NCBI GenBank assembly: GCA_002430725.1
Contig: DJCU01000001.1
Location: 9,639 to 73,638, forward strand
Origin: Candidatus Gottesmanbacteria bacterium UBA5942
GTDB taxonomy: Bacteria; Patescibacteriota; Microgenomatia; UBA10105; UBA927
Direction: 5' to 3'
DNA length: 64,000 nucleotides
Position 1 is the first letter of the stretch. Each line of letters starts with the position of its first letter. The notes beneath the pieces are model-generated. The model was given only the letters and a program-made list of their open reading frames with translations, had not been told where the DNA came from and made no database searches. A program made the translations under genes and the position numbers. Shown piece by piece: positions 3,615 through 61,192 of this stretch.

Positions 3615-4475
3615 ATGAACCCACTAGTCTTTGCTTTTATCACCTATCTTTCTTGGGGGTTGGGCGATGTATTTAACGCGATTACTGCGCGTACACTTGG
3701 TGCGGAACGCGCGCTACTTCGAGTGTTCATTGTAAGCGCTCTTCTTTTTCTCCCGCTTATTCCAAATCATATCCACGAGCTATCAAACGCTACACCACTT
3801 ATAATGATGGCAGTTATTGCGCTCGGAGGATTACAGCTTGTAGGAAATATTGCGCTCAATAAATCTCTTCGTCTTATCAACGCTCCCCTCGCGCTCACTA
3901 TTTTTTCATCATACTCCGCACTCATAGTTGTTCTATCTGTCATATTATTTCGCGAACCGATAACAATAATGCAATCGTTTTATATCAGTTTAATTTTTAT
4001 GGGAATTTTTCTTTGTACCTATGTCCCAATCAAAGAAAAACAATCAAACGAATATAAACGAGGAGTATTCCTTGCTATTGTTGGCATGGCATGTATCGGT
4101 GTGTTTTTTACCCTTGTCCAACCAATTATCGCCATTATCGGCTGGTTCTGGCCAATTTACGCATTCACTGTCTGGATTCCAATATTGTGGTGGCTACACA
4201 TCAAGGAAAAAAAGGAAAGTACACGCGTTTCATGGAAAATAGCGCTGCTACCAGTATTATTAACCGCACTTCTTTTGAGGATCGGTGATTTTTCATTTAA
4301 CGTAGCCCTCGATAGCGGCCTTACCCCGATAGTCGCACCGATTGCGGGTAGTTATCCCACTCTTTCAGTCCTCCTCTCCTATGTTGTGTTTCGCGAAAAA
4401 CTCACAATACGCCAAACCATAGGAATACTCCTTGCACTCGTTGGTATAATAGCATTAGGATTTGTAGGCGTATGA
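3615..4475 (+). CDS. EamA/DMT-superfamily membrane transporter.
   Basis: About 10 predicted TM helices and a duplicated EamA-like architecture. Confidence 0.65.
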   Translation: MNPLVFAFITYLSWGLGDVFNAITARTLGAERALLRVFIVSALLFLPLIPNHIHELSNATPLIMMAVIALGGLQLVGNIALNKSLRLINAPLALTIFSSYSALIVVLSVILFREPITIMQSFYISLIFMGIFLCTYVPIKEKQSNEYKRGVFLAIVGMACIGVFFTLVQPIIAIIGWFWPIYAFTVWIPILWWLHIKEKKESTRVSWKIALLPVLLTALLLRIGDFSFNVALDSGLTPIVAPIAGSYPTLSVLLSYVVFREKLTIRQTIGILLALVGIIALGFVGV

Positions 4476-4798
4476 GTGACGCAATACTTGTTATTATCTC
4501 ATGTAGCGATAAATCACAAGCTGAACAAATCGGCGAACAACTACTTAAAAAGAAGCTCGCCGCATGCACCCAAATTGTCCACGCTGTAGACTCCATGTTT
4601 CTTTGGCCGCCTCATAAAAATCAAATTGATTATGCTCAAGAAGCACTCCTGCTCGTTAAAACTTTGGACAACAAATGGAAAGCATTAGAAAAAGAAATCA
4701 TACGTGTTCACTCATACGAAAATCCAGAAATTATTGCACTCCCACTCTCCCATGTCGCCCCAAAGTACATGGCCTGGTTGCAAAACGAACTATCGTAA
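4472..4798 (+). CDS. cutA: CutA1 divalent-cation tolerance protein.
   Basis: ILVIISCSDKSQAEQIGEQLLKKKLAACTQIV...HSYENPEIIALPL matches the CutA1 family. Overlaps the upstream gene by ATGA. Confidence 0.7.
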   Translation: MSDAILVIISCSDKSQAEQIGEQLLKKKLAACTQIVHAVDSMFLWPPHKNQIDYAQEALLLVKTLDNKWKALEKEIIRVHSYENPEIIALPLSHVAPKYMAWLQNELS

Positions 4799-4828
4799 AT
4801 AAACACTGGTAGTCGTATACTTCTCCCT

Positions 4829-5677
4829 ATGTTATGGTTTTTCCTTGCTCTCGCAAGCGCTCTCATTTTCGCCGCACAAGAACTTCTTATGCGGATGCTT
4901 GCCATACGAACAAGCTCTCCGCGAATATTTGCTGTGGTATTTAACCTATGGGGAGCAGGCTTTGCATTGTTACTTTTTTTGCTTGAACGCGGATCACTCT
5001 CTGGCCTCTGGGGACTTACACCCATGCAATATGTACTTCTTGCTTCGACTATTGTTCTCTACGGACTATACGAACGAACCCAATTTTATGCCCGGCAGGG
5101 AACGGATGCTTCTACTTTTGCGATTATTTTTCGCTTGAGCACGGTGATCGGATTTATCGGTGCGATTTTATTTTTGAATGAGCCACTAACAACTGAAAAA
5201 ATCGCGGGCGTTATGCTTATCATATTTGCCTCATTCCTGTTAGTCTTTCGAAATCCAAAATTTACGCTCACGCCTGCACTTGGATATGCGGTACTTTGTG
5301 CCGTATTTTTGGGACTCACCAGTGTATTAGACAAGCCAGCTTCCGAACCCATGCCTGCAACACTTTATAGCTTCCTTATTTGGTTTGTGCCTATTGTGAT
5401 AGTCGCATTTCCTACTGTCTCCAAAAAAGAAATTGTCCGGGAGCTCCGTATCGGTGGGTGGAAAGTCGCCCTTGCGGCAGCGCTCAATGTCGTTGGCTAC
5501 ATTATCTATATACAAGCCTTATCTCTTGCTGAAGCATCGAGAGTAAACCCGATTACTGCAACGACCGGTATTTTTACCGTGGCGGGAGGCATATATTTCC
5601 TCAAAGAACATGGCCATCTGTGGCGGAAAATAGTTGCAACAGTATTTGCGTTTATCGGGGTACTGTTGCTGCGATAA
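4829..5677 (+). CDS. EamA/DMT-superfamily membrane transporter (second copy).
   Basis: Polytopic hydrophobic protein with EamA-like repeats. TATACT lies 7 nt upstream of the ATG. Confidence 0.6.
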   Translation: MLWFFLALASALIFAAQELLMRMLAIRTSSPRIFAVVFNLWGAGFALLLFLLERGSLSGLWGLTPMQYVLLASTIVLYGLYERTQFYARQGTDASTFAIIFRLSTVIGFIGAILFLNEPLTTEKIAGVMLIIFASFLLVFRNPKFTLTPALGYAVLCAVFLGLTSVLDKPASEPMPATLYSFLIWFVPIVIVAFPTVSKKEIVRELRIGGWKVALAAALNVVGYIIYIQALSLAEASRVNPITATTGIFTVAGGIYFLKEHGHLWRKIVATVFAFIGVLLLR

Positions 5678-5725
5678 AATATCGTACGCAGAAGTGTATA
5701 ATAAGCACACAGAAAGGAAGAAAAA

Positions 5726-6655
5726 ATGAAATTTTATCTTATCGTTCCCGACAAAGAATGTGGACTGACTTCTGAACAACAAAAACAACTCGCGATGTAT
5801 GGCGAAGTTGTCATTATCCAACACAAAGGAAAACTTGCATTACTTACCGAGCTAACCCAAGACAACGATGAAAAAATACTCGCTCTCGACCCAACAGTAT
5901 TCGATTGGGATCTAGATGTGGCAGCACTTGATCATATTCCAAATGTGAAGGCGGTCATTACTCAATCCACCTCGTTTGACTGGATACACCCCAAGGAACT
6001 TGCATCTCGAAATATTATTGGCTGCAATTGCCCGGGTTTTTCGTCCGAATCAGTAGCTGAATACGCGATATGTATGGCAATAGAAGTCGCTCGAAGACTT
6101 CCGGTTTACATCAAAAATAACTGGAAAATAGATTGGTCGGTAAAGCCAATGCTGCTCAAAGGGAAAACGCTAGGGGTTATCGGTATGGGACGCATTGGCA
6201 AAGCGATGGCTGCCGCAGGCAAAGGCATCGGCATGGACGTCATCTATTGGTCACGAAAAACCCGTCACAATGACTATACATTTACTGAACTAGCAGAGTT
6301 ATTTCAAAAAGCGGACGTGCTTATGCCAGCGCTTGTTGAAAACGATGATACAAAACGTATTATTTCTAACGACCTCATCGACACTATGAAGCCCTCCGCG
6401 GTTATTGTGGGTATTGGTCGCGTAAAGGCACTTTTACCAGAGGCATATATTTTAGAAAAAGTCGCACAAAACAAACTTGGCGGCTATGCACTAGAAGGAG
6501 AAGGCGCAAAACCATTACATGAATACCAAGGCAACGTCTGGGCACTCCCGCCTATGGCTTGGATAAGTCAGGAATCTCTTACCAATCTCATCGCTATGTG
6601 GGTAGATAATATGGTCGCAATTGCCGATAATAAACCAAAAAACATTGTGACCTAA
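5726..6655 (+). CDS. D-isomer-specific 2-hydroxyacid dehydrogenase, NAD-binding.
   Basis: Rossmann motif GVIGMGRIGKAMA and family-typical C-terminal catalytic region. Preceded by TATAAT and an AAAGGAAG Shine-Dalgarno. Confidence 0.75.
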   Translation: MKFYLIVPDKECGLTSEQQKQLAMYGEVVIIQHKGKLALLTELTQDNDEKILALDPTVFDWDLDVAALDHIPNVKAVITQSTSFDWIHPKELASRNIIGCNCPGFSSESVAEYAICMAIEVARRLPVYIKNNWKIDWSVKPMLLKGKTLGVIGMGRIGKAMAAAGKGIGMDVIYWSRKTRHNDYTFTELAELFQKADVLMPALVENDDTKRIISNDLIDTMKPSAVIVGIGRVKALLPEAYILEKVAQNKLGGYALEGEGAKPLHEYQGNVWALPPMAWISQESLTNLIAMWVDNMVAIADNKPKNIVT

Positions 6656-6656
6656 C

Positions 6657-7577
6657 ATGAAGTCCCGCTTTATACATACAGCAATGAGAATTTCGCAGAG
6701 AAGCCTCTCTATCGGTTTTCTTGTCATCGTATCGGCTAGCTACACGCTTTTATCAGTCGGGAGCAGGCTTCTTTCCGAAGGTTTTCAACCCATGACACAA
6801 GTCTATATGAGGGTTGCACTTGCAACCTTTGCTCTTCTTTTGCTTTTTCGTAAAAAAATTCGGTGGAAAACAATCCGTTCGATGCCGCGTAGCGATGCGC
6901 TCATAATCCTTACCATGGGCACCATAGGCTACTCCATAGGAGTCTATTTCATTACGTTGGGGGCACTTAACGCGAAACTCGTCAATGTCGCCATTATTTT
7001 TGCATCTGTGCCTTTTTTCTCGTATGCATATTCATTTTTCTTTCTCAAAAAACCGCTCGACCTAAAACTTACGGGGTTATTAATTCTTTCGCTTATCGGC
7101 ATAAGCATTGTTGCCACCAAATCATTTACACCTCGTTTTGCCGAGTTCGGCATCGGGGAAATATTTACCCTTATTGCCACTGCTACCATGGCGTGGTTTT
7201 TTGTCGGACGAAAAATGCTATCCCGTCACCTCAATACACATGAAATCACCATAACTGTTATGGGTGTCGCTGCAATGTCAGGACTGATACTCGCATTGTT
7301 ACGCGGTGAAACATTTTCTCTCACTGCGTTTACAAACCCACACGTGCTTTTGGGACTTGCTATCGGAGGATTTATGAATGCGCTCGTTAATCCTATCGAG
7401 ATATATGCGTTTGAACATCTCGATGCAGTATTTGGCAGTCAGATACTACTTCTCGAAAATGTCTTTGCGCTACTTTTTGGATATCTCATTTACAGAGAGA
7501 TGGTAACAATACCAGAAATTATTGGCGGTCTTATTGTCGTAGGAAGTGTCTATTTTGCCAACAAACTCCCCCAGTAG
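6657..7577 (+). CDS. EamA/DMT-superfamily membrane transporter (third copy).
   Basis: Polytopic membrane protein of EamA type. Confidence 0.6.
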   Translation: MKSRFIHTAMRISQRSLSIGFLVIVSASYTLLSVGSRLLSEGFQPMTQVYMRVALATFALLLLFRKKIRWKTIRSMPRSDALIILTMGTIGYSIGVYFITLGALNAKLVNVAIIFASVPFFSYAYSFFFLKKPLDLKLTGLLILSLIGISIVATKSFTPRFAEFGIGEIFTLIATATMAWFFVGRKMLSRHLNTHEITITVMGVAAMSGLILALLRGETFSLTAFTNPHVLLGLAIGGFMNALVNPIEIYAFEHLDAVFGSQILLLENVFALLFGYLIYREMVTIPEIIGGLIVVGSVYFANKLPQ

Positions 7578-21087: not shown

Positions 21088-21987
21088 TTATAGTTTCCCC
21101 TCCTCCAACTCCTCAAGAAGCTCTTTTTGACGTTTGGAAAGATGGGTAGGAACTTTGAGCTGAATTTTGACGTATTGGTCACCTCTGCCATTACCCCGAA
21201 CGTGCGGCACTCCTTTACCGCGGAGGCGAATAAGCGTGCCTGGCTGAGTACCGGGTTGGATACGAATACTTACCGGTTCATCTACAGTTTGTACATCCAA
21301 CACTCCTCCTAAGGCAGCCATCGAAAACGGGATTTGCTGCTCCAAAACAATATCATCACCTTCTCGATGAAATTTTTTATCAGGGCGTACTGCTATGACA
21401 AGATCAAACTCATCAAAGCGTATGCGGCTTCCTGTGTCGACACCTGCCGGAATTTTTATCGTTTTCCGTACTGACCCATGCCCTGCTCCTCCCGCTGGCA
21501 CATGTATCTCACGAGTCACACCCTTGACGGCATCCATAAAATCTATAGCAATTTCATACGAAGGGTGTGGTCGTCTCCCTCTTCCTTGTGAAAATCCACC
21601 GCCAAAAAACTGCTCAAATATCTCAAATGGGTCTAAATCTCCGCCAAAACCACCAAAGGGATTACCTCCCTGACCGCCAGACGTAGAATAATAATATTGG
21701 AACGGCCCTTGTCCAAATCCACCGCCACCAAACGGTCCTTGTCCTGAAGCTCCCGCTCCCGGCTGAAACGCGGCATGACCAAACTGATCATACGTTTCTT
21801 TCTTTTTGGCGTCAGAAAGCACTGAGTATGCTTCGTTAATTTCTTTAAATTTTTCGTTGGCGTTTGCCGCTTTGTTCCTATCTGGATGCCACTCCAACGC
21901 GAGCTTCCGGTATGCAGATTTTATTTCCTGCGCGGATGCTGATTTTGACACTCCCAACACTTCATAAAAATCACGTTTTGTTGCCAT
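21088..21987 (-). CDS. dnaJ: DnaJ-family co-chaperone lacking the Cys-rich zinc-finger domain (CbpA/DnaJ class B like).
   Basis: J domain [33 protein letters not shown], a Gly/Phe-rich region and C-terminal substrate domains. No CxxCxGxG repeats. Confidence 0.8.
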
Positions 21988-22057
21988 AGAACTGTGTATA
22001 TTATAAACAATTGAGCGCGCCTTCGCGCGCCCAATACTCATATAGCACTGTAATCAA

Positions 22058-22255
22058 TTAGCTACTCTGGCGACGACTTCTCATCTGAGCTGTTACCCGC
22101 CTGACAAGTTCATCAAAAGGACGGCTTAGCGCATCAATCAGAGCTTTATGCTTACGCTCTCCTTTATCTATCAACACTACTTCGCCGCCACCACCCTTTC
22201 GCGCATATCTCCGTTCGCGAATTCTCCTTCTCTGGCGCTCAGCTAATTCGTTCAT
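22058..22255 (-). CDS. Small basic hypothetical protein (65 aa) between dnaK and dnaJ.
   Basis: ORF MNELAERQRRRIRERRYARKGGGGEVVLIDKGERKHKALIDALSRPFDELVRRV starts 10 nt after the dnaK stop, on the same strand and inside the operon. No recognizable family. Confidence 0.35.
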   Translation of the reverse strand: MNELAERQRRRIRERRYARKGGGGEVVLIDKGERKHKALIDALSRPFDELVRRVTAQMRSRRQSS

Positions 22256-22264
22256 ACCACCCTA

Positions 22265-24181
22265 TCAGCTTACCACTTCCCCTTCTTCAGCTTTTGCTTT
22301 ATCGTCCGGCTTTTTCTCACCGTTTTCTGCCTTCTGCTCATCTCCTGCCCCAGTTGCTCCCGAAGCGTCTCCCGGTGTTCCTTGAGGAGGCTGTTGATAC
22401 ATCGCCGCCCCTACTTTTTGGACAACATCGGAAAGCTCACTTGTCTTAGTCTCCAAATCTTCTTTCGAGCCGGTTTCCAATATTTCTTTAAGCGCCTTCA
22501 CTTTTTCTTCAATCGCAGACTTGTCCTCCGGTTTGGCTTTATCCCCTGCGTCTTTCACGGTTTTTTCAGCAAGGTAGATCATGTTATCTGCCTTGTTGCG
22601 GGCCTCAATCTTTTCCTTCTTTTCCGTATCAGCAGCAGCATTGGCCTCTGCTTCCTGGCGCATTTTCTCTACTTCTTCTTTAGATAACCCCGTAGAGCCG
22701 GTAATTTTTATCGAGCTCACTTTTCCGCTCGCTTTATCTTTGGCGGACACCGAAAGAATACCGCTCGCGTCTATATCAAAGGTCACCTCAACCTGCGGAG
22801 TCCCCCGTGGTGCCGGTGGAATTCCGGATAAGACAAACCGCCCGAGCGATTTATTATCCGCTGCCATTGGGCGCTCCCCCTGCAACACATTAATTTCGAC
22901 AGACGTCTGGTTATCAGCCGCTGTTGAGTAAATCTCCGTTTTAGAAGTCGGCACCGTTGTGTTTCGCGCAATCATCGGAGTCGAAACACCTCCAAGCGTT
23001 TCTACACTCAGAGTTAGCGGGGTCACGTCCAGTAGTACAACATCCTTCACATCTCCGGAGAGCACTCCGGCTTGTACTGCCGCACCGATAGCTACCACTT
23101 CATCTGGGTTTACAGACACATTTGGCTCTTTGCCAAAAAATTCTTTCACTACTTCAATGACTTTTGGCATGCGAGTCATACCACCCACCATAACCACTTC
23201 ATTGATATCCGATACTTTAAGCTTGGCATCGGCTAAACATTTTTTGACAGGCTCAATCGACTTCTGGATAAGGTCAAGTACAATTGACTCAAGCTTTGCT
23301 CGAGTAATTTTGACAACCAGATGAAGCGGGCCATCTTTACCCTGAGTAATAAAGGGTAAATTCACCTCTGCTTCCATGGCACTGGAAAGCTCAATCTTTG
23401 CCTTCTCAGCAGCATCACGTAGACGCTGCAATGCTTGATTATCTTTCCGTAGATCAACGTTGTTTTCCTTTTTAAACTCATCGGCAAGGTAATCCAAAAT
23501 CTTTTTATCAAAATCGTCTCCTCCCAAATGAGTATCCCCATTGGTAGCTTTTACTTCGTACACTCCCTCGCCAAGCTCAAGAATAGAGATATCGAATGTT
23601 CCACCTCCCAAGTCATAGACTGCTATGGTGTGAACGTTTTTCTTATCCAATCCGTATGCGAGCGCTGCAGCGGTCGGCTCATTTAATATCCGGAGCACTT
23701 CTAGTCCTGCGATTTCTCCTGCTTGTTTCGTAGCTTGTCGTTCAGAATCATCAAAATATGCAGGAACCGTAATGACCGCTTGGGTCACTGGCTCTCCCAG
23801 ATATTTTTCAGCATCGGATTTGATTTTCGCCAAAATTTTGGCGGAAATTTCTTGTGGGGTGAAGGTTTTACCTTCCACTTCCACAACAGCCATATCGTTT
23901 TTCCCAGATTTGATGGTGTACGGAAGCCACTTCGCATCTGTCTGCACTGACGCATCAGAATATTTGCGACCAACAAGGCGCTTGACTGAAAACACAGTGG
24001 ATTTAGGTTTTAATACCGTTTGTCGCTTTGCAACGTCTCCAACGATATTCTTAATAGGATCAACGACCGATGGGATAACATTTCTTCCTTCAGCAGAATG
24101 AATAACCTTCGGAGATCCGCCCTCCATTACTGCAACACATGAATTTGTTGTTCCTAAATCAATACCAATTATTTTTGCCAT
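22265..24181 (-). CDS. dnaK: Chaperone DnaK (Hsp70).
   Basis: [18 protein letters not shown] and DLGGGTFD Hsp70 signatures. Confidence 0.95.
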
Positions 24182-24207
24182 ATATTTCTCCTTTCTGAGA
24201 GATAAAA

Positions 24208-24684
24208 TTAATTACTTTTTGGCGCCGAAGTACCTACTTTTACCCGAGCAACCCTAAGAACCTTGTCGCGGAACCGATACCCTGGTACTACTTCTTCCAC
24301 GACTTCATTTTGCTTACCACTCACGACCTCAATACAATCCATTTCTTCAGGGTTAAACTCCTTACCAACCACTTCAATACGACTCACCCCTTGTTCTGCT
24401 AACACAGACAACAATTCTTTGTATGCCAAATCCAATCCCGGATCTTTTATGTGCTCCTGCACTTTGCTAAACGTATCCACCACCGGCAGCAATCGTGATA
24501 ACACCATTTCAGCAGCATACATACGCACATGAGACACTCGCTCATCACTTCGCTTCTCCAAGTTCTGATAGTCAGCAAGTGCCCGCAAATATTTTAATTT
24601 CCACTCATCAACTTCATTTTTTTGTTCCACTACCACATCTTCCATTTTTGTTTTTGGTTTTGGTTGATCTTGTGTTTTTTTCAT
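24208..24684 (-). CDS. grpE: Nucleotide exchange factor GrpE.
   Basis: Coiled-coil N-terminus and a GrpE C-terminal beta domain ([15 protein letters not shown]). Confidence 0.85.
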
Positions 24685-24693
24685 AATTCAAAT

Positions 24694-25419
24694 TTAGCTT
24701 GCAAATTCATCAATAAGATTTCCTAAATATCGGACTACGGGAATAACGGTCGGATAATTAAGTCGAGACGGCCCGATTACTCCGATTGCTCCAGTTACAT
24801 GCGATGTTTTAAATTTGTAATATACAAAGCCGCATTGTGTCAGCGCACCAGTCGATAGATCATCTCCAACTAAAATAGAAAATGGCGCATCGTGTAATTC
24901 CAACACTTTCCACCAAAAAGCGTATTCATCCAGCGTTCCCAACAATTCATGAGTGAGTTGATAATCATAAAACTCGGGCATGTCCAATATGTTTGCCGCT
25001 CCAGAATAATAGAGATCGCCTTCATTAGTCGCGGTAATTGCCAAGGTTTTCGTTTTTTCCGCCAGCGCTTTGGTTGCTTCACGCAATAATTTGTCTATTT
25101 CCTGACGATAACTCCACACTTTTTCCTTTACTGCCACCTCTTCGGCAACTGAAAGATCCTTAGGTTTCATGAGCTGCTCAACGTAGTACTTCATGGCAAC
25201 CGGTGTTGGTGTACGCCCGGCTGATGTGTGTGGTTGCTTTAACATCCCTATTTCAGTCAACCGCACCATTTCATTTCGAATAGTCGCAGGAGAAACACCT
25301 AAGTTATGTTTCTTTTCTAACGTCTCGCTTCCCACAGCCTCTGCTGTCATGATGTACTCATCGATGACCGCCTTCAAAATCTGTATTTGACGAGGAGTAA
25401 GATCGGTTACTGCGTCCAT
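24694..25419 (-). CDS. hrcA: Heat-inducible transcription repressor HrcA.
   Basis: LTPRQIQILKAVIDEYIMTAEAVGSETL winged-helix N-terminus. Start set at MDAV because the annotated upstream ATG lies inside the CIRCE element. Confidence 0.85.
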   Translation of the reverse strand: MDAVTDLTPRQIQILKAVIDEYIMTAEAVGSETLEKKHNLGVSPATIRNEMVRLTEIGMLKQPHTSAGRTPTPVAMKYYVEQLMKPKDLSVAEEVAVKEKVWSYRQEIDKLLREATKALAEKTKTLAITATNEGDLYYSGAANILDMPEFYDYQLTHELLGTLDEYAFWWKVLELHDAPFSILVGDDLSTGALTQCGFVYYKFKTSHVTGAIGVIGPSRLNYPTVIPVVRYLGNLIDEFAS

Positions 25420-25420
25420 A

Positions 25421-25447
25421 TTAGCACTAATATACATCGAGTGCTAA
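25421..25447 (-). promoter_or_regulatory. CIRCE operator (HrcA binding site) overlapping the hrcA promoter.
   Basis: TTAGCACTA-ATATACATC-GAGTGCTAA against the consensus TTAGCACTC-N9-GAGTGCTAA: one mismatch. Confidence 0.85.
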
Positions 25448-32887: not shown

Positions 32888-33955
32888 GTGCCAGACGATA
32901 TTTTAGACGCAGCTCAAAAAGCAATAAATGACGCAGCAAAAAACGCCGATGCAGGCGCAGTTCCTGCTGCTCCTCTAAACGAAACACCTGCACCACAAAG
33001 CGCACCGCTACCGCCTGAACCAGTCGAACCAGTAACACCCCCACCTGCAGAAATGCCGCAGTCATCACCGGTAACACCCGAAACACCAGCGTCAACAGAT
33101 GCTCCTACAACACCCACGCAGGCATCCACCGATATGACAAAAGAAGAAATGATGAATGAACTCCTTGGGTCAACGTCAGTCGCTGCCCCAGCGTCAGTGG
33201 TCGTTCCTCCTCCAGAAAAAAGTGGAAAACCGCACAGCGGAAGCTTGCCGCCCAAAAAAACTTCTAAGGTAGGTATTATCGCTGTTATCGCAGCGTTACT
33301 TCTGACGCTCCCAGTTGCGGTTTATTTCATATCACAACAAAACAGTCAGATCGCAGATATTAGAAATCGCGCTGCCTGGGATACGGTATACCAAGGCTGT
33401 ACCGTCAGTCCTGATAGTTGTAAATCACTCGGACCAGGCTGGTCGTGCCATTGTCAAAATGGAACAGCGTGCACCCACACCGAATGCGAATACGATATTG
33501 AACGGAACTGTAGAGACCAAGGGAGACAATACTGCTTGAATGTCTTTAACGGAAATGCCATGACATGTTGCGTTGAAGGCTATGTCTGTGGACCAAGCGG
33601 CGGCTGTGTCCCTGGTGGAGGTGGTGGCGATGATGATAGCGGTGATGATGACGATACGGAGCCAACTCCCACGCCCACCACAGGAATTACGCCAGTCTGC
33701 CAAAATATAAAACTCTACAAAAATGGCACACAGGTTACTGACCTTAACACCCTTCGCGCTGGTGACGAAGTAGTACTCGCTGTCAAAGGCAACCTTTCAC
33801 CAACGAAGGCACACTTTAGAGTTAACGGGTCTGGCTGGACAGAAACCACAACTAAAAATGCAAGCGATGAGTTTACATGGAGTTACACCATACCTGAAGG
33901 TGTACCTGACTTTGTTATAGAAGGCGAAGTGTTTACGAACGGAGCATGGAGATAA
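32888..33955 (+). CDS. Bitopic membrane protein: cytoplasmic Pro-rich N-terminus, one TM, an extracellular Cys-rich module, an acidic linker and a C-terminal beta domain. GTG start.
   Basis: TM VGIIAVIAALLLTLPVAVYFI. At least 14 Cys in CTVSPDSCKSLGPGWSCHCQNGTACTHTECEYDIERNCRDQGRQYCLNVFNGNAMTCCVEGYVCGPSGGCVPGGGGG. Acidic linker DDDSGDDDD. Confidence 0.5.
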   Translation: MPDDILDAAQKAINDAAKNADAGAVPAAPLNETPAPQSAPLPPEPVEPVTPPPAEMPQSSPVTPETPASTDAPTTPTQASTDMTKEEMMNELLGSTSVAAPASVVVPPPEKSGKPHSGSLPPKKTSKVGIIAVIAALLLTLPVAVYFISQQNSQIADIRNRAAWDTVYQGCTVSPDSCKSLGPGWSCHCQNGTACTHTECEYDIERNCRDQGRQYCLNVFNGNAMTCCVEGYVCGPSGGCVPGGGGGDDDSGDDDDTEPTPTPTTGITPVCQNIKLYKNGTQVTDLNTLRAGDEVVLAVKGNLSPTKAHFRVNGSGWTETTTKNASDEFTWSYTIPEGVPDFVIEGEVFTNGAWR

Positions 33956-40524: not shown

Positions 40525-43473
40525 TCACGTCACACTGCAAAACATCTGGTATTCACAATCTTTACACAGCATATTCCCCGAGCAACGAAAATCTGACGCC
40601 TCTATCTGTTTCGCAATATCAATAATCATAATTTTTTCTTTTTCTAATTGTTCCATGGTGCGAGTCGTAGAAATCTTTGTCTGTGTATCAAAAAAATAAA
40701 GCGATAATGTAATATCTTCTGTTTTCTTGCCAAATGGAACTGCATGTATTTCAGATGCTGCCAACGCATACATAGATAACTGTAAATTTGCGTCTACCTC
40801 ACGTTTAGACGGCATCCTACCAGTTTTATAATCTATGATCTCTAATTTTCCATCAGGGAGAATATCAATTCTATCGATCTTTCCTCCGACTTTTAAAGAC
40901 TTTCCCTCATGTGTAATAGGTACGATAAACGGTTGCTCAAGTGCCGCAATTTTTGTATCCGGTTTGAATTCTTTTTCATAGTATTCTGTCAAATATTGCT
41001 CTCCCCTCTTTTTCATATCTTCCTCGTAGCGTTTATTTTCGTATCCTGCTTTCTGCCACCGGCTAGTAAGCAAGCTCAATAATAATTCTTGACTCACCTT
41101 TTCTCCCGCTGCATGCAATTCATAAAAATCATGGAGCGCGTTGTGTACACTCGTTCCGAACGATAAAGATGCAGACGGAGAGGTCGGGATATTGAGAAAA
41201 TATCGAAGTTTATAATGTAGCGGACAAAGCCGAAATGTTTCTATCTGCGAGTATGAAAGATACGAGATAGTTATTTTTTTTGCCTCTCCAGATGTTCCTT
41301 GCTGCACCTCATCCTTCTTCCAATCCAGCAACGACATTTGAGAAGGTCGTAAATTGGGAGCAACGATTGATTTCTCGCCAATCACTTCGTACACAAATGG
41401 TGAAAGTTTTTTCTCTCGTTTTCCTTCACCGTAATAGTTAGCACCCGTAAGGTATAGCAAATCCTGTGCCCGGGTCATCCCTACATAACAAAGCCTGCGC
41501 TCTTCCTCCAAATGATAATCACCAACGGGCAACTCCTCTTTGATAAGCTCCTCGGGTATAGGGATAGTCTCTCTCCGCTCTACAGTCGGAAATCGAGCAG
41601 AAACCATGTTTACCAAAAACGCCACCGGAAATTCTAATCCCTTACTACTGTGCACCGATAATATATTTACCGAATCATTACTCATCCAGTCAGAGTCGTT
41701 AGCAAGTGGAGATTCTCCGAGTTCCATAGAAAGCTCAATCCAATCAAGTACTGCAGGGACGCTCGCATCTGTATGATCTGTTTCATACGTTTTAAGCTTG
41801 CTAAAAAACTTGGAAATATTGTTTGCAATTTTTTCATCAACAGGGGCACTATAGTCAAGGATGTTTTTCATCATCCCGGTATCACGCAAAAAATAAAATA
41901 AAATTTGTCCTGCGCTCTCACGAGTCACGAGCCCCATGTGTTTATGGATCATCGCGATAATTTCTTTTATTTTCTGCAGTACTTCCTTATCAACAACGGG
42001 AACTTCTGCCCCCTCCATGTTTCGTAATCCAACCGTTATTTCGCTCGCCTCAAAAAGCGACACATTTTGTTTGCGGGCAAAATTTGCAATAGCCGCAATA
42101 TCTCTCGGTGGAAATGCAAAATAATCCATAGAAAATACTCTAAACATCGCCACGTTGTCTTCAAAATTATGAATAACCTGCAAATATGAAATAAGCTCTT
42201 TTATTTCCTGTTGACGAAATAGTTGTCCGGGCCCCAAAAATTGAAACGGAATATTGTATCGCATAAGTGCGCGGACAAACGGTTCTGCGTGATTGTTTGC
42301 GCGTACCAATATTGCCATGTCTTTCCAAGAGTAAGTACCGCCACTGTGCTTTTTTACTCCTGATAGTCGCTTGATCTCTTTTGCGACCGCGTCCGCTTCA
42401 TTTTCTACCCGTTCTTCATACAGTAACTTCGGCCACTCACCGGACAAATTGCGCGCTGAAGTAAGTTTTTTGTTGATGTGTTCTTTTACCTCTAACCTGT
42501 CCGGATTATTGTGCTGTATCAGCTGATATGAAGCATCCAGTATAGATTGGGTAGAGCGGTAATTCTGCGATAACACAATAAGTTTTGCTTTTGGAAAGTG
42601 CACACGAAATGATAATACGTTAGAAACCGCAGCTCCTCGGAATTTATAGATGCTCTGATCATCATCGCAAACTGCGGTTATATTTTGCCGCTTCCCGGCA
42701 AGCAACGCCACCAATTCATTTTGGGCGATATTCGTATCCTGAAATTCATCTACTAATATGTAATTAAACTGCTCTTGATAAAAATGAAGAATATTTTTTC
42801 GCGTTCTAAAAAGCGATAGAGTTTTTGTAATAAGATCTCCAAAATCCATGTACCCCTCTTTCACTTTTAGCTCCTGATACGCCTTATAGGTACGAGATAA
42901 CTCAATGTATTTTTTAATCTCTAATTTTTCCTCTTCACTTTCAGCCTTTGCCTCCTTGTCACTTACCCATTTTTGGTACTGCTCCGGTGATACGTCCTCA
43001 TCTTGGAGACGCGAAAAATGCTGCAATATGCCACTGATGAATTTGGTAGGATTTCCTAAAGGTCGAAAATAATCTAAATCAAACGTAAACAAGTGGGCCC
43101 GAAACAACATAGTGGCGTCAGTATCGGTCATGAGGCGATAACTTGGGTTTAATCCAATATGTATTGCTTCCTGCCTGAGTAAACGGTCACAAAATTTGTG
43201 GAATGTAGAAATCCACATCTGAGTATAGCCATAGGGCATGATCACATCCACGCGCTCCTCCATCTCGCGCGCCGCTTTTTCAGTAAATGTAAGTGCGAGG
43301 ATTTGTGAAGGTAATGCTTTGCCTGAGCTTATCAGTTGTTTAATGCGCTCGGTGACTACAGTAGTTTTACCAGTGCCCGCGCCAGCGATAATAAGGAGCG
43401 GCCCATCACCGAAATTAACTGCTTCCTGTTGCTCTTCGTTGAGGCTTTTTTTATCTACGGGAGGTTTCGCCAT
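40525..43473 (-). CDS. Single-chain UvrD-like helicase fused to a C-terminal PD-(D/E)XK nuclease with a Cas4/AddB-type Fe-S Cys cluster.
   Basis: N-terminal Walker A IIAGAGTGKTTVVT plus UvrD motifs. C-terminal GKIDRIDILPDGKLEIIDYKTG (D...ExK) with Cys at CPLHYK and RCSGNMLCKDCEYQMFC (C-x5-C-x2-C-x5-C). Confidence 0.8.
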   Translation of the reverse strand: MAKPPVDKKSLNEEQQEAVNFGDGPLLIIAGAGTGKTTVVTERIKQLISSGKALPSQILALTFTEKAAREMEERVDVIMPYGYTQMWISTFHKFCDRLLRQEAIHIGLNPSYRLMTDTDATMLFRAHLFTFDLDYFRPLGNPTKFISGILQHFSRLQDEDVSPEQYQKWVSDKEAKAESEEEKLEIKKYIELSRTYKAYQELKVKEGYMDFGDLITKTLSLFRTRKNILHFYQEQFNYILVDEFQDTNIAQNELVALLAGKRQNITAVCDDDQSIYKFRGAAVSNVLSFRVHFPKAKLIVLSQNYRSTQSILDASYQLIQHNNPDRLEVKEHINKKLTSARNLSGEWPKLLYEERVENEADAVAKEIKRLSGVKKHSGGTYSWKDMAILVRANNHAEPFVRALMRYNIPFQFLGPGQLFRQQEIKELISYLQVIHNFEDNVAMFRVFSMDYFAFPPRDIAAIANFARKQNVSLFEASEITVGLRNMEGAEVPVVDKEVLQKIKEIIAMIHKHMGLVTRESAGQILFYFLRDTGMMKNILDYSAPVDEKIANNISKFFSKLKTYETDHTDASVPAVLDWIELSMELGESPLANDSDWMSNDSVNILSVHSSKGLEFPVAFLVNMVSARFPTVERRETIPIPEELIKEELPVGDYHLEEERRLCYVGMTRAQDLLYLTGANYYGEGKREKKLSPFVYEVIGEKSIVAPNLRPSQMSLLDWKKDEVQQGTSGEAKKITISYLSYSQIETFRLCPLHYKLRYFLNIPTSPSASLSFGTSVHNALHDFYELHAAGEKVSQELLLSLLTSRWQKAGYENKRYEEDMKKRGEQYLTEYYEKEFKPDTKIAALEQPFIVPITHEGKSLKVGGKIDRIDILPDGKLEIIDYKTGRMPSKREVDANLQLSMYALAASEIHAVPFGKKTEDITLSLYFFDTQTKISTTRTMEQLEKEKIMIIDIAKQIEASDFRCSGNMLCKDCEYQMFCSVT

Positions 43474-58206: not shown

Positions 58207-59874
<1,668 letters not shown>

Positions 59875-59892: not shown

Positions 59893-60207
59893 TTATTCGA
59901 CTATTGCCAAAATATCTTTTTGTTCAACGATCATCCAGTCCTGCCCTTCAACCTTAATTTCGTTTCCTCCCCATTTTTTGTACATGACTTTCTGACCGAC
60001 TTTCACGACCATCTCTCCTTTGCAGCAGGAGTCTTTTTCATCGCCACACGCACAAACTGCGCCATCGCCAACAGCCATGACCTCGCCCATTTGTGGTTTT
60101 TCTTTTGCGCTATCGGGAAGTACTAACCCTGAGGGTAACTTTTGTTCAGCCTCCAAAGGCTTAATGAGAACATTATCAAACAACGGCGTAATGGTTTTTT
60201 TTGCCAT
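59893..60207 (-). CDS. groES: Co-chaperonin GroES with a Cys-rich insertion in the roof-hairpin region.
   Basis: PLFDNVLIKP...GEVMAVGDGAVCACGDEKDSCCKGEMVVKVGQKV...DILAIVE. The four Cys (CxC...CC) replace the usual roof loop. A strong AAAGGAGG Shine-Dalgarno precedes the ATG. Confidence 0.9.
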   Translation of the reverse strand: MAKKTITPLFDNVLIKPLEAEQKLPSGLVLPDSAKEKPQMGEVMAVGDGAVCACGDEKDSCCKGEMVVKVGQKVMYKKWGGNEIKVEGQDWMIVEQKDILAIVE

Positions 60208-60258
60208 AACTTGCCTCCTTTTTATAAAATGCGACTGCAGAGCTGTTTTGCTAAAAAA

Positions 60259-60285
60259 CTAGCAGTCTTTTGAAGTGACTGCTAT
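60259..60285 (-). promoter_or_regulatory. Degenerate CIRCE-like inverted repeat upstream of groES.
   Basis: CTAGCAGTC-TTTTGAAGT-GACTGCTAT. It is palindromic but differs from the consensus at 4 of 18 positions. A TTGACA-N16-TAAAAT promoter lies just upstream on the minus strand (about 60286-60310). Confidence 0.4.
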
Positions 60286-60286
60286 T

Positions 60287-61192
60287 TTATCGGTGGTAAA
60301 AAATCTTGTCAAGGGGGATATCCGACTGCTGAAGCCGAAGGGCGTACTTTTCTCGCACCCATTTACGCGCATCGTTAGGATGAAACCGTATCATACCATA
60401 TTCTATTACCTCACTTGTCCGTCTCTTTCGCATGTACACCCGTTGTACGAAAGATGCGACAGGCTCTAGTAATGCTATAGCACCTTGTAGCCACGTCAGT
60501 ACATTGATCCTCGATTTTTTGTCGCTTCGCACCATGCCACGAATTTTATCGTGCCACGCGTTTGGAAAAAAATGCTTCACCCACCGATTTGCGGACAAAA
60601 ACCGCTGATACACCCCTTCCCTCTCCCACAGCGGCACCATCTGCAACACCTCGTGCGCGGCAAAAAAATCCCGCTCGTTCCGAGGTAGCGAAAGCGCATC
60701 TTCTGCCATAAACATGTTGAGGCATATTTTATTTTTCACCCGCCTGTCTCCCGGCCTTCTACGCATCCCCAATATCTCAGCGACAAAGGTCACGAGACTT
60801 CGGGTTAACCACAGAGTATTTTTTCGCGAGACAAAAAATAAATCGATATCGTCACCTTCTTTGGCATTTTCCACAGCCAACCCACCCGTCACTCCTACAA
60901 GAAGAAGTGTCGGGATGATCCTGAACAGTCGCGAAGCTGCGTGTATCCGGCGCCATTTGAAAACCGCACTTTTTTGCCGCAATTGTCTGATATGCACCAA
61001 ACTTTTTCGTTTGGGTAAGCACACATACTCAATACCTGCTTTCTTTGATATATCCAAACCAGTAAGTGAGGAAGGTACTCGATCAATACCCCCCACCGCC
61101 CACAACCGTATCTCATCCCGAGTTAACGGAAAATCAAAAACATCTGCGTACGCCACAGCGGCAAAAACTTTTTGAAGGCGCGTGAATTTCAT
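60287..61192 (-). CDS. Pol-beta-superfamily nucleotidyltransferase-fold protein of unknown function.
   Basis: LLVGVTGGLAVENAKEGDDIDLFFV matches the hG[GS]-x(9-13)-DhD minimal NTase motif, with a later acidic residue (FMAEDAL). About 190 aa of helical C-terminus. The 3' end overlaps the groES promoter/CIRCE region. Confidence 0.5.
   Translation of the reverse strand: MKFTRLQKVFAAVAYADVFDFPLTRDEIRLWAVGGIDRVPSSLTGLDISKKAGIEYVCLPKRKSLVHIRQLRQKSAVFKWRRIHAASRLFRIIPTLLLVGVTGGLAVENAKEGDDIDLFFVSRKNTLWLTRSLVTFVAEILGMRRRPGDRRVKNKICLNMFMAEDALSLPRNERDFFAAHEVLQMVPLWEREGVYQRFLSANRWVKHFFPNAWHDKIRGMVRSDKKSRINVLTWLQGAIALLEPVASFVQRVYMRKRRTSEVIEYGMIRFHPNDARKWVREKYALRLQQSDIPLDKIFYHR

Follow-up and report, generated by a model that had tools for sequence, protein, structure and literature searches.

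A cysteine-rich roof segment in the GroES co-chaperonin of a Gottesmanbacterium and its relatives, with a possible metal-binding role at the dome apex

GroES is among the most conserved and best-studied of proteins, and the roof of its dome has been regarded as a structural part with no active role. Canonical forms with solved structures (E. coli, 1AON; T. thermophilus, 4V4O; M. tuberculosis, 1P3H and 1HX5) share family, fold, and mobile loop with the protein described here, and their arrangement in a groES-groEL operon under CIRCE/HrcA control is likewise shared. The difference lies in the roof, which in the protein described here is longer, free of hydrophobic residues, and has four cysteines, whereas the aligned E. 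coli, M. tuberculosis, and T. thermophilus roofs have none. Phage T4 Gp31, another co-chaperonin of the GroES fold, also has a remodelled dome top; there, however, the roof hairpin is missing, leaving an opening, while here it is lengthened and Cys-enriched. As for metals, Taneja and Mande reportedly found divalent cations to be bound by acidic loops in the dome of M. tuberculosis Cpn10; this precedent would be for carboxylate-based rather than thiolate-based metal at the dome.

Helicobacter pylori HspA, the sole and essential GroES of that organism, carries a dispensable His/Cys-rich metal-binding C-terminal appendage with -Cys-Cys- anchors; the protein is abundant, and a metal-storage role has been proposed for it (PMC3856676). 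Its nickel-binding tail is His-rich and terminal, with NikR/nickel regulation; the module considered here is internal, in the roof, and of a type with almost no His (0.8%). Metallothioneins are defined by a Cys content of about one third, the lack of aromatic residues, Cys-X-Cys, Cys-Cys, and Cys-Cys-Cys motifs, and the lack of structure until metal is bound (PMC4101491). Cys-rich GroES roofs were not found described in the full-text literature searched, which largely lacks subscription-journal papers.

The gene studied here lies in a 64-kb stretch of DNA (the window) from Candidatus Gottesmanbacteria bacterium UBA5942 (Table 1), and its product, MAKKTITPLFDNVLIKPLEAEQKLPSGLVLPDSAKEKPQMGEVMAVGDGAVCACGDEKDSCCKGEMVVKVGQKVMYKKWGGNEIKVEGQDWMIVEQKDILAIVE, had been identified as a GroES in the first-pass annotation. 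This is borne out by an end-to-end match to Pfam Cpn10 (PF00166; 95.1 bits against a cut-off of 21.1, E 2.6e-27), with residues 6-103 covering profile positions 2-93 of 93, and by a Foldseek search of the PDB, in which all 33 matches at E <= 0.001 were to Cpn10/GroES, Cpn20, or Gp31 (1g31), the top structures having 38-44% identity. The AF2 model has the GroES beta-barrel fold, with core pLDDT of 73-90. The mobile loop, with its hydrophobic tripeptide for GroEL binding, is intact: its SGLVLPDSAKEKPQ pairs in alignment with E. coli GGIVLTGSAAAKST, and S26, G27, L30, P31, K35, E36, P38, and Q39 are invariant or nearly so among 120 relatives. The C-terminus (...KDILAIVE) is also canonical, with no HspA-like extension and no His.

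Table 1. Features of the groES-groEL and hrcA loci (window positions; strand as read, "." for inverted repeats)
Feature	Position	Strand	Details
groES (Cpn10) CDS	59893..60207	-	ORF list; 104 aa plus stop
Mobile loop (GroEL-binding)	60091..60153	-	about residues 19-39, EAEQKLPSGLVLPDSAKEKPQ; nearly invariant among relatives
Roof (dome-tip) segment G47-M66	60010..60069	-	GDGAVCACGDEKDSCCKGEM; translation, and alignment with solved GroES structures and 120 relatives
N-arm Cys pair C52-A53-C54	60046..60054	-	codons TGT GCG TGT
C-arm vicinal Cys pair C61-C62	60022..60027	-	codons TGC TGC
groEL (Cpn60)	58207..59862	-	551 aa, GGM-type C-terminal tail; Pfam PF00118, E 7.9e-62
Ribosome-binding site GGAGG	60214..60218	-	6 nt upstream of ATG; read from sequence
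Sigma70-type promoter TTGACA-17-TAAAAT	60284..60312	-	11/12 consensus matches; best site in scanned region
CIRCE-like inverted repeat	60256..60288	.	minus strand ATAGCAGTC-N9-GACTGCTAG; overlaps -10 hexamer
hrcA	24697..25437	-	Pfam HrcA PF01628; repressor expected to act on CIRCE
hrcA-grpE-dnaK-dnaJ operon	21091..25437		hrcA first; Pfam HrcA, GrpE, HSP70, DnaJ
Second, near-canonical CIRCE	25422..25446	.	at hrcA 5' end; TTAGCACTC-N9-TAGTGCTAA; pattern search

The surroundings of the gene are those of a housekeeping groES. It is the first gene of its operon, with groEL starting 30 nt downstream of its stop codon, and the two share one promoter and one CIRCE, upstream of groES. The repeat there has 12-nt arms, 92% complementary, with a 9-nt spacer, and resembles the consensus TTAGCACTC-N9-GAGTGCTAA; the genome also has hrcA, with a CIRCE at its own 5' end. 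The pattern has no further match in the 64 kb, where 0.11 would be expected by chance and these two are seen. No other operator is visible upstream of groES, and its regulation looks, from the upstream sequence, to be purely of the heat-shock (CIRCE) type. An extra paralog in place of the housekeeping gene was considered and, within the window and the relatives' loci examined, rejected: the window has a single Cpn10 ORF, and none of those loci had two groES copies. This is thus the organism's operon-encoded, HrcA/CIRCE-regulated GroES, with an ordinary core, an ordinary mobile loop, and an ordinary groEL partner; it presumably still works as a co-chaperonin in the usual way.

The roof is another matter. 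Residue-level alignment with solved GroES structures, and a further alignment with GroES of E. coli, M. tuberculosis, and T. thermophilus, place it directly after the conserved AVG-x-G (here AVGDG): only G47-x-G49 is retained, and the new sequence that stands for the remainder of the hairpin makes it about 6 residues longer, net, than the canonical form. The replacement includes C52-x-C54-x6-C61-C62, with two Cys on each arm flanking an acidic turn, GDEKDS. The first-pass annotation had described just this, a CxC-x6-CC cluster standing in for the roof hairpin, and both the translation and the alignment with diverse GroES agree with it as to sequence and position. By homology, the segment would sit at the dome apex; simple arithmetic, with homology to solved GroES heptamers, would then give the heptamer a total of 28 Cys around its dome orifice. 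The Cys density of the segment is not due to chance: Cys makes up 0.5% of the residues in the window's long ORFs, and the probability of four or more in a given 17-aa stretch is about 1.5e-6. Nor is it a sequencing or frameshift artefact, which was considered and rejected. The reading frame is intact; the identical protein is found in five sources (NCBI, MGnify, JGI, Logan, and ENA), on 17 contigs of its cluster that are listed in 53 index blocks, the longest contig being 1.17 Mb; and more than 100 distinct relatives have Cys-rich roofs in the same position.

These relatives were surveyed through 279 distinct roofs from the Microgenomates group (organisms named as Gottesman-, Woese-, Roizman-, and Daviesbacteria). 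By number of Cys they fall into two classes: 166 have none, 112 have three to six, and just one has one or two. The Cys-rich roofs range from 12 to 33 aa, with 28% Cys and 17% Asp; Asp, Lys, Gly, and Ser are abundant, while hydrophobic, aromatic (about 0.3%), and Pro residues are almost absent. CxC is found in 94 of the 112, CC in 71, and CxxC in 41, and the commonest distributions of Cys over the two arms are 2+2 and 3+2. The spacing is variable, with 55 signatures among 78 roofs. Within the window protein's own 90%-identity cluster the roofs are AVCACGDEKDSCC, ASCSCGDDKDSCC, AACCDEKDSCC, and GACCDDKDSCC: the spacing changes, with almost no change outside the roof, but all variants keep four Cys, so that conservation of the Cys in close orthologs is upheld. 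About 60% of close relatives have a roof without any Cys, and the Cys-rich form is therefore dispensable for chaperonin function; even orthologs with 85% overall identity can bear an ordinary Cys-free roof. The first-pass annotation, made from this one sequence, missed the polymorphism across the group, the Cys-free orthologs at this identity, and the lack of conserved Cys spacing. The best 150 of 16,050 matches (50%-identity cluster representatives) did not show the trait beyond the Microgenomates group: they included one Cys-rich roof, which probably represents this lineage's own cluster, and one roof with two Cys.

Composition and motifs suggest what such a roof might do. Like metallothioneins, these segments have CxC, CC, and CCC motifs, abundant Lys, Ser, and Gly, next to no aromatics, and no predicted secondary structure; some relatives' roofs, such as TGSSCDCKDCDCKKCDCGKM, resemble metallothionein fragments. 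Metallothioneins, though, are free-standing small proteins, where the roof is an insert of 12-33 residues in a GroES of 104 aa; Gottesmanbacteria-type roofs are also unusually Asp-rich, and any cluster would need seven chains. Common ancestry with metallothioneins or with another Cys-rich domain was rejected: roof peptides matched no Pfam family even at E <= 10, and a search of all PDB sequences gave nothing significant, the best metallothionein match having E = 4.6. The resemblance is therefore compositional only. It would suit a metallothionein-like thiolate module binding a thiophilic metal at a putative site at the dome apex, the reading that fits the data best and whose chances we judge to be about even. 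The number of Cys favors it, since a metal site needs three or more ligands, while drift would have filled the nearly empty class with one or two. It is also consistent with the retention of Cys as spacing and neighboring residues change, and with recurrent switching between roof forms under otherwise extreme purifying selection. The metal would by default most likely be Zn(II), with Cu(I), Cd, Ni, Co, and As(III) indistinguishable from it by sequence. A Pfam search covering 55 of the window's 56 long ORFs found no metal transporter, metal regulator, hydrogenase, or metalloenzyme-maturation gene; this counts against a metal-binding role, as it leaves no gene in the window to hint at which metal. 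Also against it are the absence of significant sequence similarity between roof peptides and any metallothionein family or solved metalloprotein, the variable Cys spacing, the dispensability of the Cys, and an Asp content higher than is usual in classical metallothioneins.

A classical structural zinc site is a rival to this reading: a single fixed Cys4 site in each subunit, like a zinc ribbon or knuckle, with the sole role of rigidifying the longer hairpin. The window protein, with exactly 2+2 Cys on the two hairpin arms, would suit it, as would the prevalence of 2+2 and 3+2 among its relatives. However, a ribbon or knuckle has two CxxC motifs at conserved spacing, and the window protein has CxC and CC; CxxC occurs in a minority of Cys-rich roofs, the number of Cys runs from three to six, and the spacing shifts from CxC to CC even inside one 90% cluster. 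Such variation in spacing leaves no basis for proposing a particular coordination geometry, and a classical fixed site is disfavored; we consider it decidedly unlikely.

Structure prediction bears on the same question. With the same MSA, AF2 gave a roof hairpin for a Cys-free ortholog (pLDDT about 81) but coil without secondary structure for the window protein (block pLDDT about 53), so the low confidence is specific to the Cys-rich roof, although it could simply reflect a heterogeneous alignment there. AF2 is usually confident on conserved zinc ribbons, a further point against a fixed zinc site. A defined fold for the Cys-rich roof was rejected, the monomer model being of low confidence there and offering no geometry.

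Iron-sulfur ligation is a different possibility, in which [2Fe-2S] or [4Fe-4S] clusters, used in sensing or transfer, would be bound by the roofs of one or of adjacent subunits. Organisms of this group are probably anaerobes, and each chain has three to six Cys that might serve, Asp offering an alternative ligand. Against this, vicinal CC, CxC, and variable spacing are atypical of Fe-S sites, a sevenfold ring makes an even pairing of subunits impossible, and a Pfam search of the window ORFs found no Fe-S assembly genes nearby; the idea seems very improbable.

The first-pass annotation had proposed metal binding or redox sensing, without choosing between them. As a redox switch, the roof thiols would form disulfides within or between subunits under oxidants, locking or capping the heptamer, or, in organisms poor in antioxidant systems, would act as oxidant scavengers. 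The Cys are clustered and, by homology, surface-exposed where seven chains meet, and CxC and CC motifs are able to form strained, reactive disulfides; a dispensable, patchy feature is also what might be expected of a niche-specific stress adaptation. Odd numbers of Cys are, however, about as common as even ones among the Cys-rich roofs (52 to 60), so that pairing within a chain would often be incomplete, and seven-fold symmetry bars complete pairing between chains. GroES is cytoplasmic, and cytoplasmic Cys clusters are usually metal ligands; in addition, the neighboring acidic residues would be expected to raise thiol pKa and so reduce reactivity. The equal frequency of odd and even counts argues against obligate intrachain disulfides, and on this ground the data lean toward metal binding; a redox switch appears quite unlikely. 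Of the original two-sided proposal, then, composition and motifs, the all-or-none number of Cys, and their retention support a role of this general kind, short of proof, with the metal half the better favored.

The last alternative is that the Cys have no specific function, the roof being a fast-evolving, dispensable loop in which a low-complexity Cys/Asp/Gly insert, arising by slippage or recombination, is merely tolerated. Phage T4 Gp31 is functional without a roof hairpin. Roof length varies widely (12-33 aa), with frequent gain and loss, and the roof outpaces the core even in Cys-free forms, with 28% mismatch in the roof and 10% in the core. Among Cys-rich forms, pairwise mismatch is 31% at Cys positions, 47% at other roof positions, and 8% in the core; this analysis is ungapped and understates Cys conservation under register shifts, so the conservation of Cys is a lower bound. 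In one pair of loci (L006 and L008) the roofs differ at four positions, none of them a Cys. Roof Cys codons are an even mix of TGT and TGC (34:34), which points to Cys of long standing that have been kept, and not to repeats newly made by slippage; with no perfect DNA repeats in the roofs either, fresh microsatellite slippage was rejected as their sole origin. That the Cys survive both spacing changes and this synonymous turnover is hard to reconcile with mere tolerance, as are the bimodal counts, essentially without intermediates, and the enrichment to 28% of what is the rarest residue in the genome. Lack of function is, in our estimation, unlikely.

It is also at odds with the recurrence of similar solutions. 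On the GroEL tree, which includes 15 Cys-rich loci, all with groEL within the locus examined, the roof state requires at least nine changes by Fitch parsimony. Cys-rich and Cys-free groES loci are collinear, and the two forms are orthologous alleles of the same locus. Between syntenic orthologs the whole roof can be swapped with no, or almost no, amino acid change at the compared non-roof positions: L001 and L012 differ by 24 nt and 0 aa over 83 compared non-roof codons, and L007 and L021 by 22 nt and 1 aa over 81. The Cys-rich roof is thus a polymorphism that is common throughout the Microgenomates group and has switched state many times there. Bacterial ribosomal proteins are known in Cys-plus and Cys-minus (zinc-ribbon and zinc-free) forms, with repeated switching between related lineages. 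These are similar in being conserved housekeeping proteins with and without a Cys cluster, but their ribbons have fixed CxxC motifs and the two forms are often zinc-regulated paralogs, while the GroES forms are alleles of unfixed spacing.

If the roof does bind metal, the seven roofs would converge at the apex of the heptamer dome, bringing together 28 thiolates here and 21-42 in relatives, either as per-subunit sites or as a shared cluster bridging subunits. The roof would become ordered only on binding metal, the metal-thiolate structure taking the place of the canonical hairpin's hydrophobic packing. The cell would probably gain a way to buffer or store metal on a protein that is very abundant, a dome that metal stiffens or caps, or both. 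By analogy, we infer a functional parallel to the HspA tail, which lies elsewhere in the protein and arose independently. A bolder version, which we regard as doubtful, has the seven roofs building one multinuclear metal-thiolate cluster that plugs the dome orifice, making the lid a high-capacity metal store or sensor and the roof an exchangeable cassette. Metal or redox state might then govern how ordered this lid is, and perhaps also how stable the heptamer or how well sealed the cavity, and the module might be gained, lost, and swapped by recombination among Microgenomates lineages with local metal conditions.

For experiments, Cys-rich and Cys-free orthologs with 0 aa change at the compared non-roof positions provide matched natural pairs, and a self-assembling sevenfold scaffold displaying thiolate clusters may interest protein engineers. 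Should the Cys prove to be without function, the series would still document unusually fast, cassette-like evolution of a single loop in a protein whose remainder is under extreme purifying selection. Should metal binding be correct, this would be a second, independent recruitment of a co-chaperonin for metal handling, after Helicobacter HspA, and the first at the dome apex; it would show bacteria with ultra-small genomes, short of homeostasis systems, adding functions to abundant housekeeping proteins.

The 104-residue GroES (Cpn10) of the window matches the PF00166 profile end to end in a Pfam search (score 95.1 bits; cut-off 21.1). Its roof, the hairpin segment at the dome tip, reads GDGAVCACGDEKDSCCKGEM, with the arrangement Cys52-x-Cys54-x6-Cys61-Cys62. 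In a residue-level alignment with solved GroES structures the Cys stretch takes the exact position of the roof beta-hairpin, after the conserved AVG-x-G, and alignment with E. coli, M. tuberculosis and T. thermophilus GroES places it identically; the proposal of the first-pass annotation that CxC-x6-CC replaces this hairpin is thus borne out, in a roof about six residues longer than canonical. Cys makes up only 0.5% of residues in the window's long ORFs, and given this background four in 17 residues have a per-position probability of about 1.5e-6. A sequencing, assembly or frameshift artefact, named in that annotation as a possible refutation, is excluded: the identical protein is on record from five independent sources, on many contigs of up to 1.17 Mb (NCBI assembly GCA_002430675.1 included), and a JGI metagenome copy has the same gene neighborhood.

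No other Cpn10 ORF occurs in the window. The groES inverted repeat, a CIRCE variant (TAGCAGTC-N9-GACTGCTA), overlaps the -10 hexamer; in a pattern search the CIRCE layout had just two matches in 64 kb (0.11 expected by chance), and both operators overlap or abut a TTGACA-type promoter. From this operon layout, with its sigma70 promoter and CIRCE, groES is the ordinary heat-shock-regulated housekeeping co-chaperonin gene.

Features of the groES locus and of other window regions discussed in the text
Feature	Position	Strand	Details
groES (Cpn10) ORF	59893..60207	-	104 aa; PF00166
Roof-coding segment of groES	60010..60069	-	
groEL	58207..59862	-	551 aa; PF00118; start 30 nt downstream of groES
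Ribosome-binding site	upstream of groES		GGAGG, read from sequence
Sigma70 promoter	60284..60312	-	TTGACA-17-TAAAAT; near-consensus, 11/12 matches
CIRCE-type inverted repeat at groES	60256..60288		ATAGCAGTC-N9-GACTGCTAG; 12-nt arms, 9-nt spacer
Second CIRCE, near-canonical	25422..25446		TTAGCACTC-N9-TAGTGCTAA; start of hrcA-grpE-dnaK-dnaJ operon
ORF upstream of groES	60287..61192	-	301 aa; no Pfam family
DnaJ	21091..22041	-	317 aa; J domain and DnaJ_C domain
ORF with Cys cluster	33053..33955	+	300 aa; no credible Pfam match
UvrD-helicase/PD-(D/E)XK nuclease fusion	40525..43473	-	982 aa
EamA-family transporter paralogs	3615..7574	+	three within 4 kb

The ORF immediately upstream of groES is found at this same place in both the NCBI and the JGI copy, and its stop codon falls within the promoter/CIRCE region. 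The DnaJ of the hrcA-grpE-dnaK-dnaJ operon has zero Cys and is therefore without the customary CxxCxGxG zinc finger (class B-like), which contrasts oddly with the gain of Cys by GroES in this genome. Elsewhere, the 300-aa ORF has a local Cys cluster (CCVEGYVCGPSGGCVPG) and sits downstream of PilN/PilO-like genes and a purple-acid-phosphatase/Big_13-domain ORF, neighbors which suggest possible secretion or surface location of its product; the nuclease fusion is AddA/AddB-like, with a faint Cas4-like match and a four-Cys stretch (CSGNMLCKDCEYQMFCS); and a D-2-hydroxyacid dehydrogenase gene interrupts the EamA set.

The 120 closest database relatives, all with Patescibacteria or Gottesmanbacteria names, divide into proteins of 98 aa with a Cys-free roof (G-x-G-T-T-D-E-K-G-N-x-V-K-M) and proteins of 102-112 aa with 3-6 roof Cys. 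A second search, with a divergent Woesebacteria-type Cys-rich GroES, found such roofs in about 35 of the 120 nearest relatives, under Woese-, Roizman- and Daviesbacteria names, among them strikingly metallothionein-like ones such as TGSSCDCKDCDCKKCDCGKM; the Microgenomates group of Patescibacteria includes both Gottesman- and Woesebacteria. Only 1 of the 150 nearest 50%-identity cluster representatives from the whole Cpn10 family (best 150 of 16,050) has such a roof, and it probably stands for this lineage's own cluster; a further one has two roof Cys. Within this scope the trait is documented for Microgenomates only. Many of the nearest representatives (P0123-P0150) are 150-370 aa long, with two or three Cpn10 stretches in tandem, Cpn20-like architectures. 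Two Microgenomates GroES with Cys-free roofs (loci L071 and L072) have a charged C-terminal extension of about 22 aa (…AVVEEDKKNAYEEVLEMSKKLNARR) past the canonical end. Many species-representative records (including L004, L006, L007, and L010) bear the title “uncultured Gammaproteobacteria bacterium”, and L053 is named “Weeksellaceae bacterium”; since GroES and GroEL from these records group within Gottesman- and Woesebacteria sequences, the titles look like placeholders or mis-binning.

The whole pooled set comprised 314 distinct proteins with 279 distinct roofs: 166 without Cys, one with two, and 112 with three (16), four (44), five (36), or six (16). This all-or-none distribution, zero or at least three, counts as a sign of selection; the near-absence of a 1-2 Cys class would follow from a metal site needing at least three ligands. 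Cys-free roofs are nearly fixed in length (13 residues in 144 of 166), while Cys-rich ones span 12-33 residues and consist of 28% Cys, 17% Asp, 12% Lys, 12% Gly, and 10% Ser, with about 2% hydrophobic residues (about 17% in Cys-free roofs) and 0.3% Pro (vs. 6.9%). The Cys form two groups, one per arm, most often 2+2 or 3+2, on either side of a turn that is acidic or rich in Gly; CxC is present in 94 of the 112, CC in 71, and CxxC in 41. Their spacing is not conserved (55 distinct signatures in the first 78 roofs), which weakens the metal-binding case, and a classical fixed Cys4 zinc site seems distinctly unlikely. A redox or disulfide role, the other function suggested at first pass, is quite unlikely; odd and even Cys counts are about equally common (52 vs. 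60), which argues against obligate disulfide pairing.

Could the Cys be carried in a tolerated loop without specific function? Conservation among close relatives, which the first-pass annotation proposed as a check, is found in the window protein's 90% cluster, whose four full-length variants (AVCACGDEKDSCC, ASCSCGDDKDSCC, AACCDEKDSCC, and GACCDDKDSCC) differ in CxC-to-CC spacing and neighboring residues, and hardly at all outside the roof, but retain all four Cys. Two further loci (L006 and L008) have four roof differences, none at Cys, and are identical elsewhere. Ungapped pairwise mismatch is 31% at Cys positions (a figure inflated by register shifts), 47% at other roof positions, and 8% in the core. 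TGT and TGC serve equally often as Cys codons and the roofs hold no perfect DNA repeats, so fresh slippage products are rejected and the Cys have persisted through synonymous turnover. A functionless loop is in our view unlikely.

Roofs have switched repeatedly between the two states. On a tree of the adjacent GroEL (544 columns, 75 taxa; loci from 80 species-representative genomes), the 15 Cys-rich tips occupy nine separate places, and Fitch parsimony requires at least nine state changes (9-10 in bootstrap replicates), against a mean of 13.7 when states are distributed over the tips at random. In Gottesmanbacteria UBA6580 (L012), the closest relative of the window's species, the locus remains collinear for more than 5 kb (81.6% nucleotide identity), and the GroES differs by 24 nt but no amino acids in 83 compared non-roof codons, while the roof is swapped wholesale (DGAVCACGDEKDSCCKGEMVVK against AGTTDEKGNPVTMIVR). 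A second, independent pair (L007 and L021) shows the same pattern, with 22 nt and one amino acid differing in 81 codons. Given this collinearity and near-identity, and since no fetched locus has two groES genes, paralogy is rejected in favor of orthologous alleles. Cys-free roofs, being uniform and like those of other phyla, are taken as ancestral; the Cys-rich ones have emerged on many occasions, either anew or through exchange of short cassettes.

AlphaFold2, run with a 120-sequence alignment, models the GroES core confidently, and significant Foldseek matches are to Cpn10/GroES-type structures only. For the Cys-rich roof (residues 48-66) the model gives coil at a block pLDDT of about 53, dropping under 50 for residues 58-60. 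From those 120 sequences, the Cys-free roof of the L012 ortholog (P0012) is modelled as a short hairpin (strands 50-51 and 57-58, block pLDDT about 81). An autonomous hairpin is thus not predicted for the Cys-rich roof. Such a result would fit a segment that becomes ordered only when metal is bound or the heptamer forms, but could also stem from a heterogeneous alignment in this region.

The best-supported reading, to which we give an about even chance, is that the roof is a flexible, metallothionein-like thiolate metal-binding module at the dome apex. Metallothioneins are about one third Cys, lack aromatic residues, use Cys-X-Cys, Cys-Cys, and even Cys-Cys-Cys motifs, and have no secondary structure before metal binds (PMC4101491), all features shared by the Cys-rich roofs. 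That hydrophobic residues are lost suggests replacement of the packing in the hairpin by a metal-thiolate core. Homology with solved heptamers implies that seven roofs converge around the dome orifice, which would place 28 thiolates there (21-42 in relatives), as per-subunit sites or one shared cluster; an Fe-S cluster is very improbable. Counting against metal binding, the roof peptides have no significant similarity to metallothionein families or solved structures, about 60% of close relatives do without a Cys-rich roof, and Pfam annotation of 55 of the window's 56 long ORFs found no metal-handling gene.

The first-pass annotation likened the protein to HspA, the sole GroES of Helicobacter pylori, whose dispensable His/Cys-rich C-terminal tail, with a -Cys-Cys- anchoring motif, binds and stores nickel (PMC3856676). 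The roof is a different site and has no His, and the gene is under CIRCE rather than the metal control implied for HspA; the module would therefore be an analogue of HspA, outside that family. No description of Cys-rich GroES roofs was found in a full-text library that covers few subscription-journal papers. The window protein is a genuine GroES whose roof module is undescribed, recurrent, and probably metal-binding, and matched ortholog pairs, one roof Cys-rich and the other Cys-free, allow a direct test of the metal-binding hypothesis.
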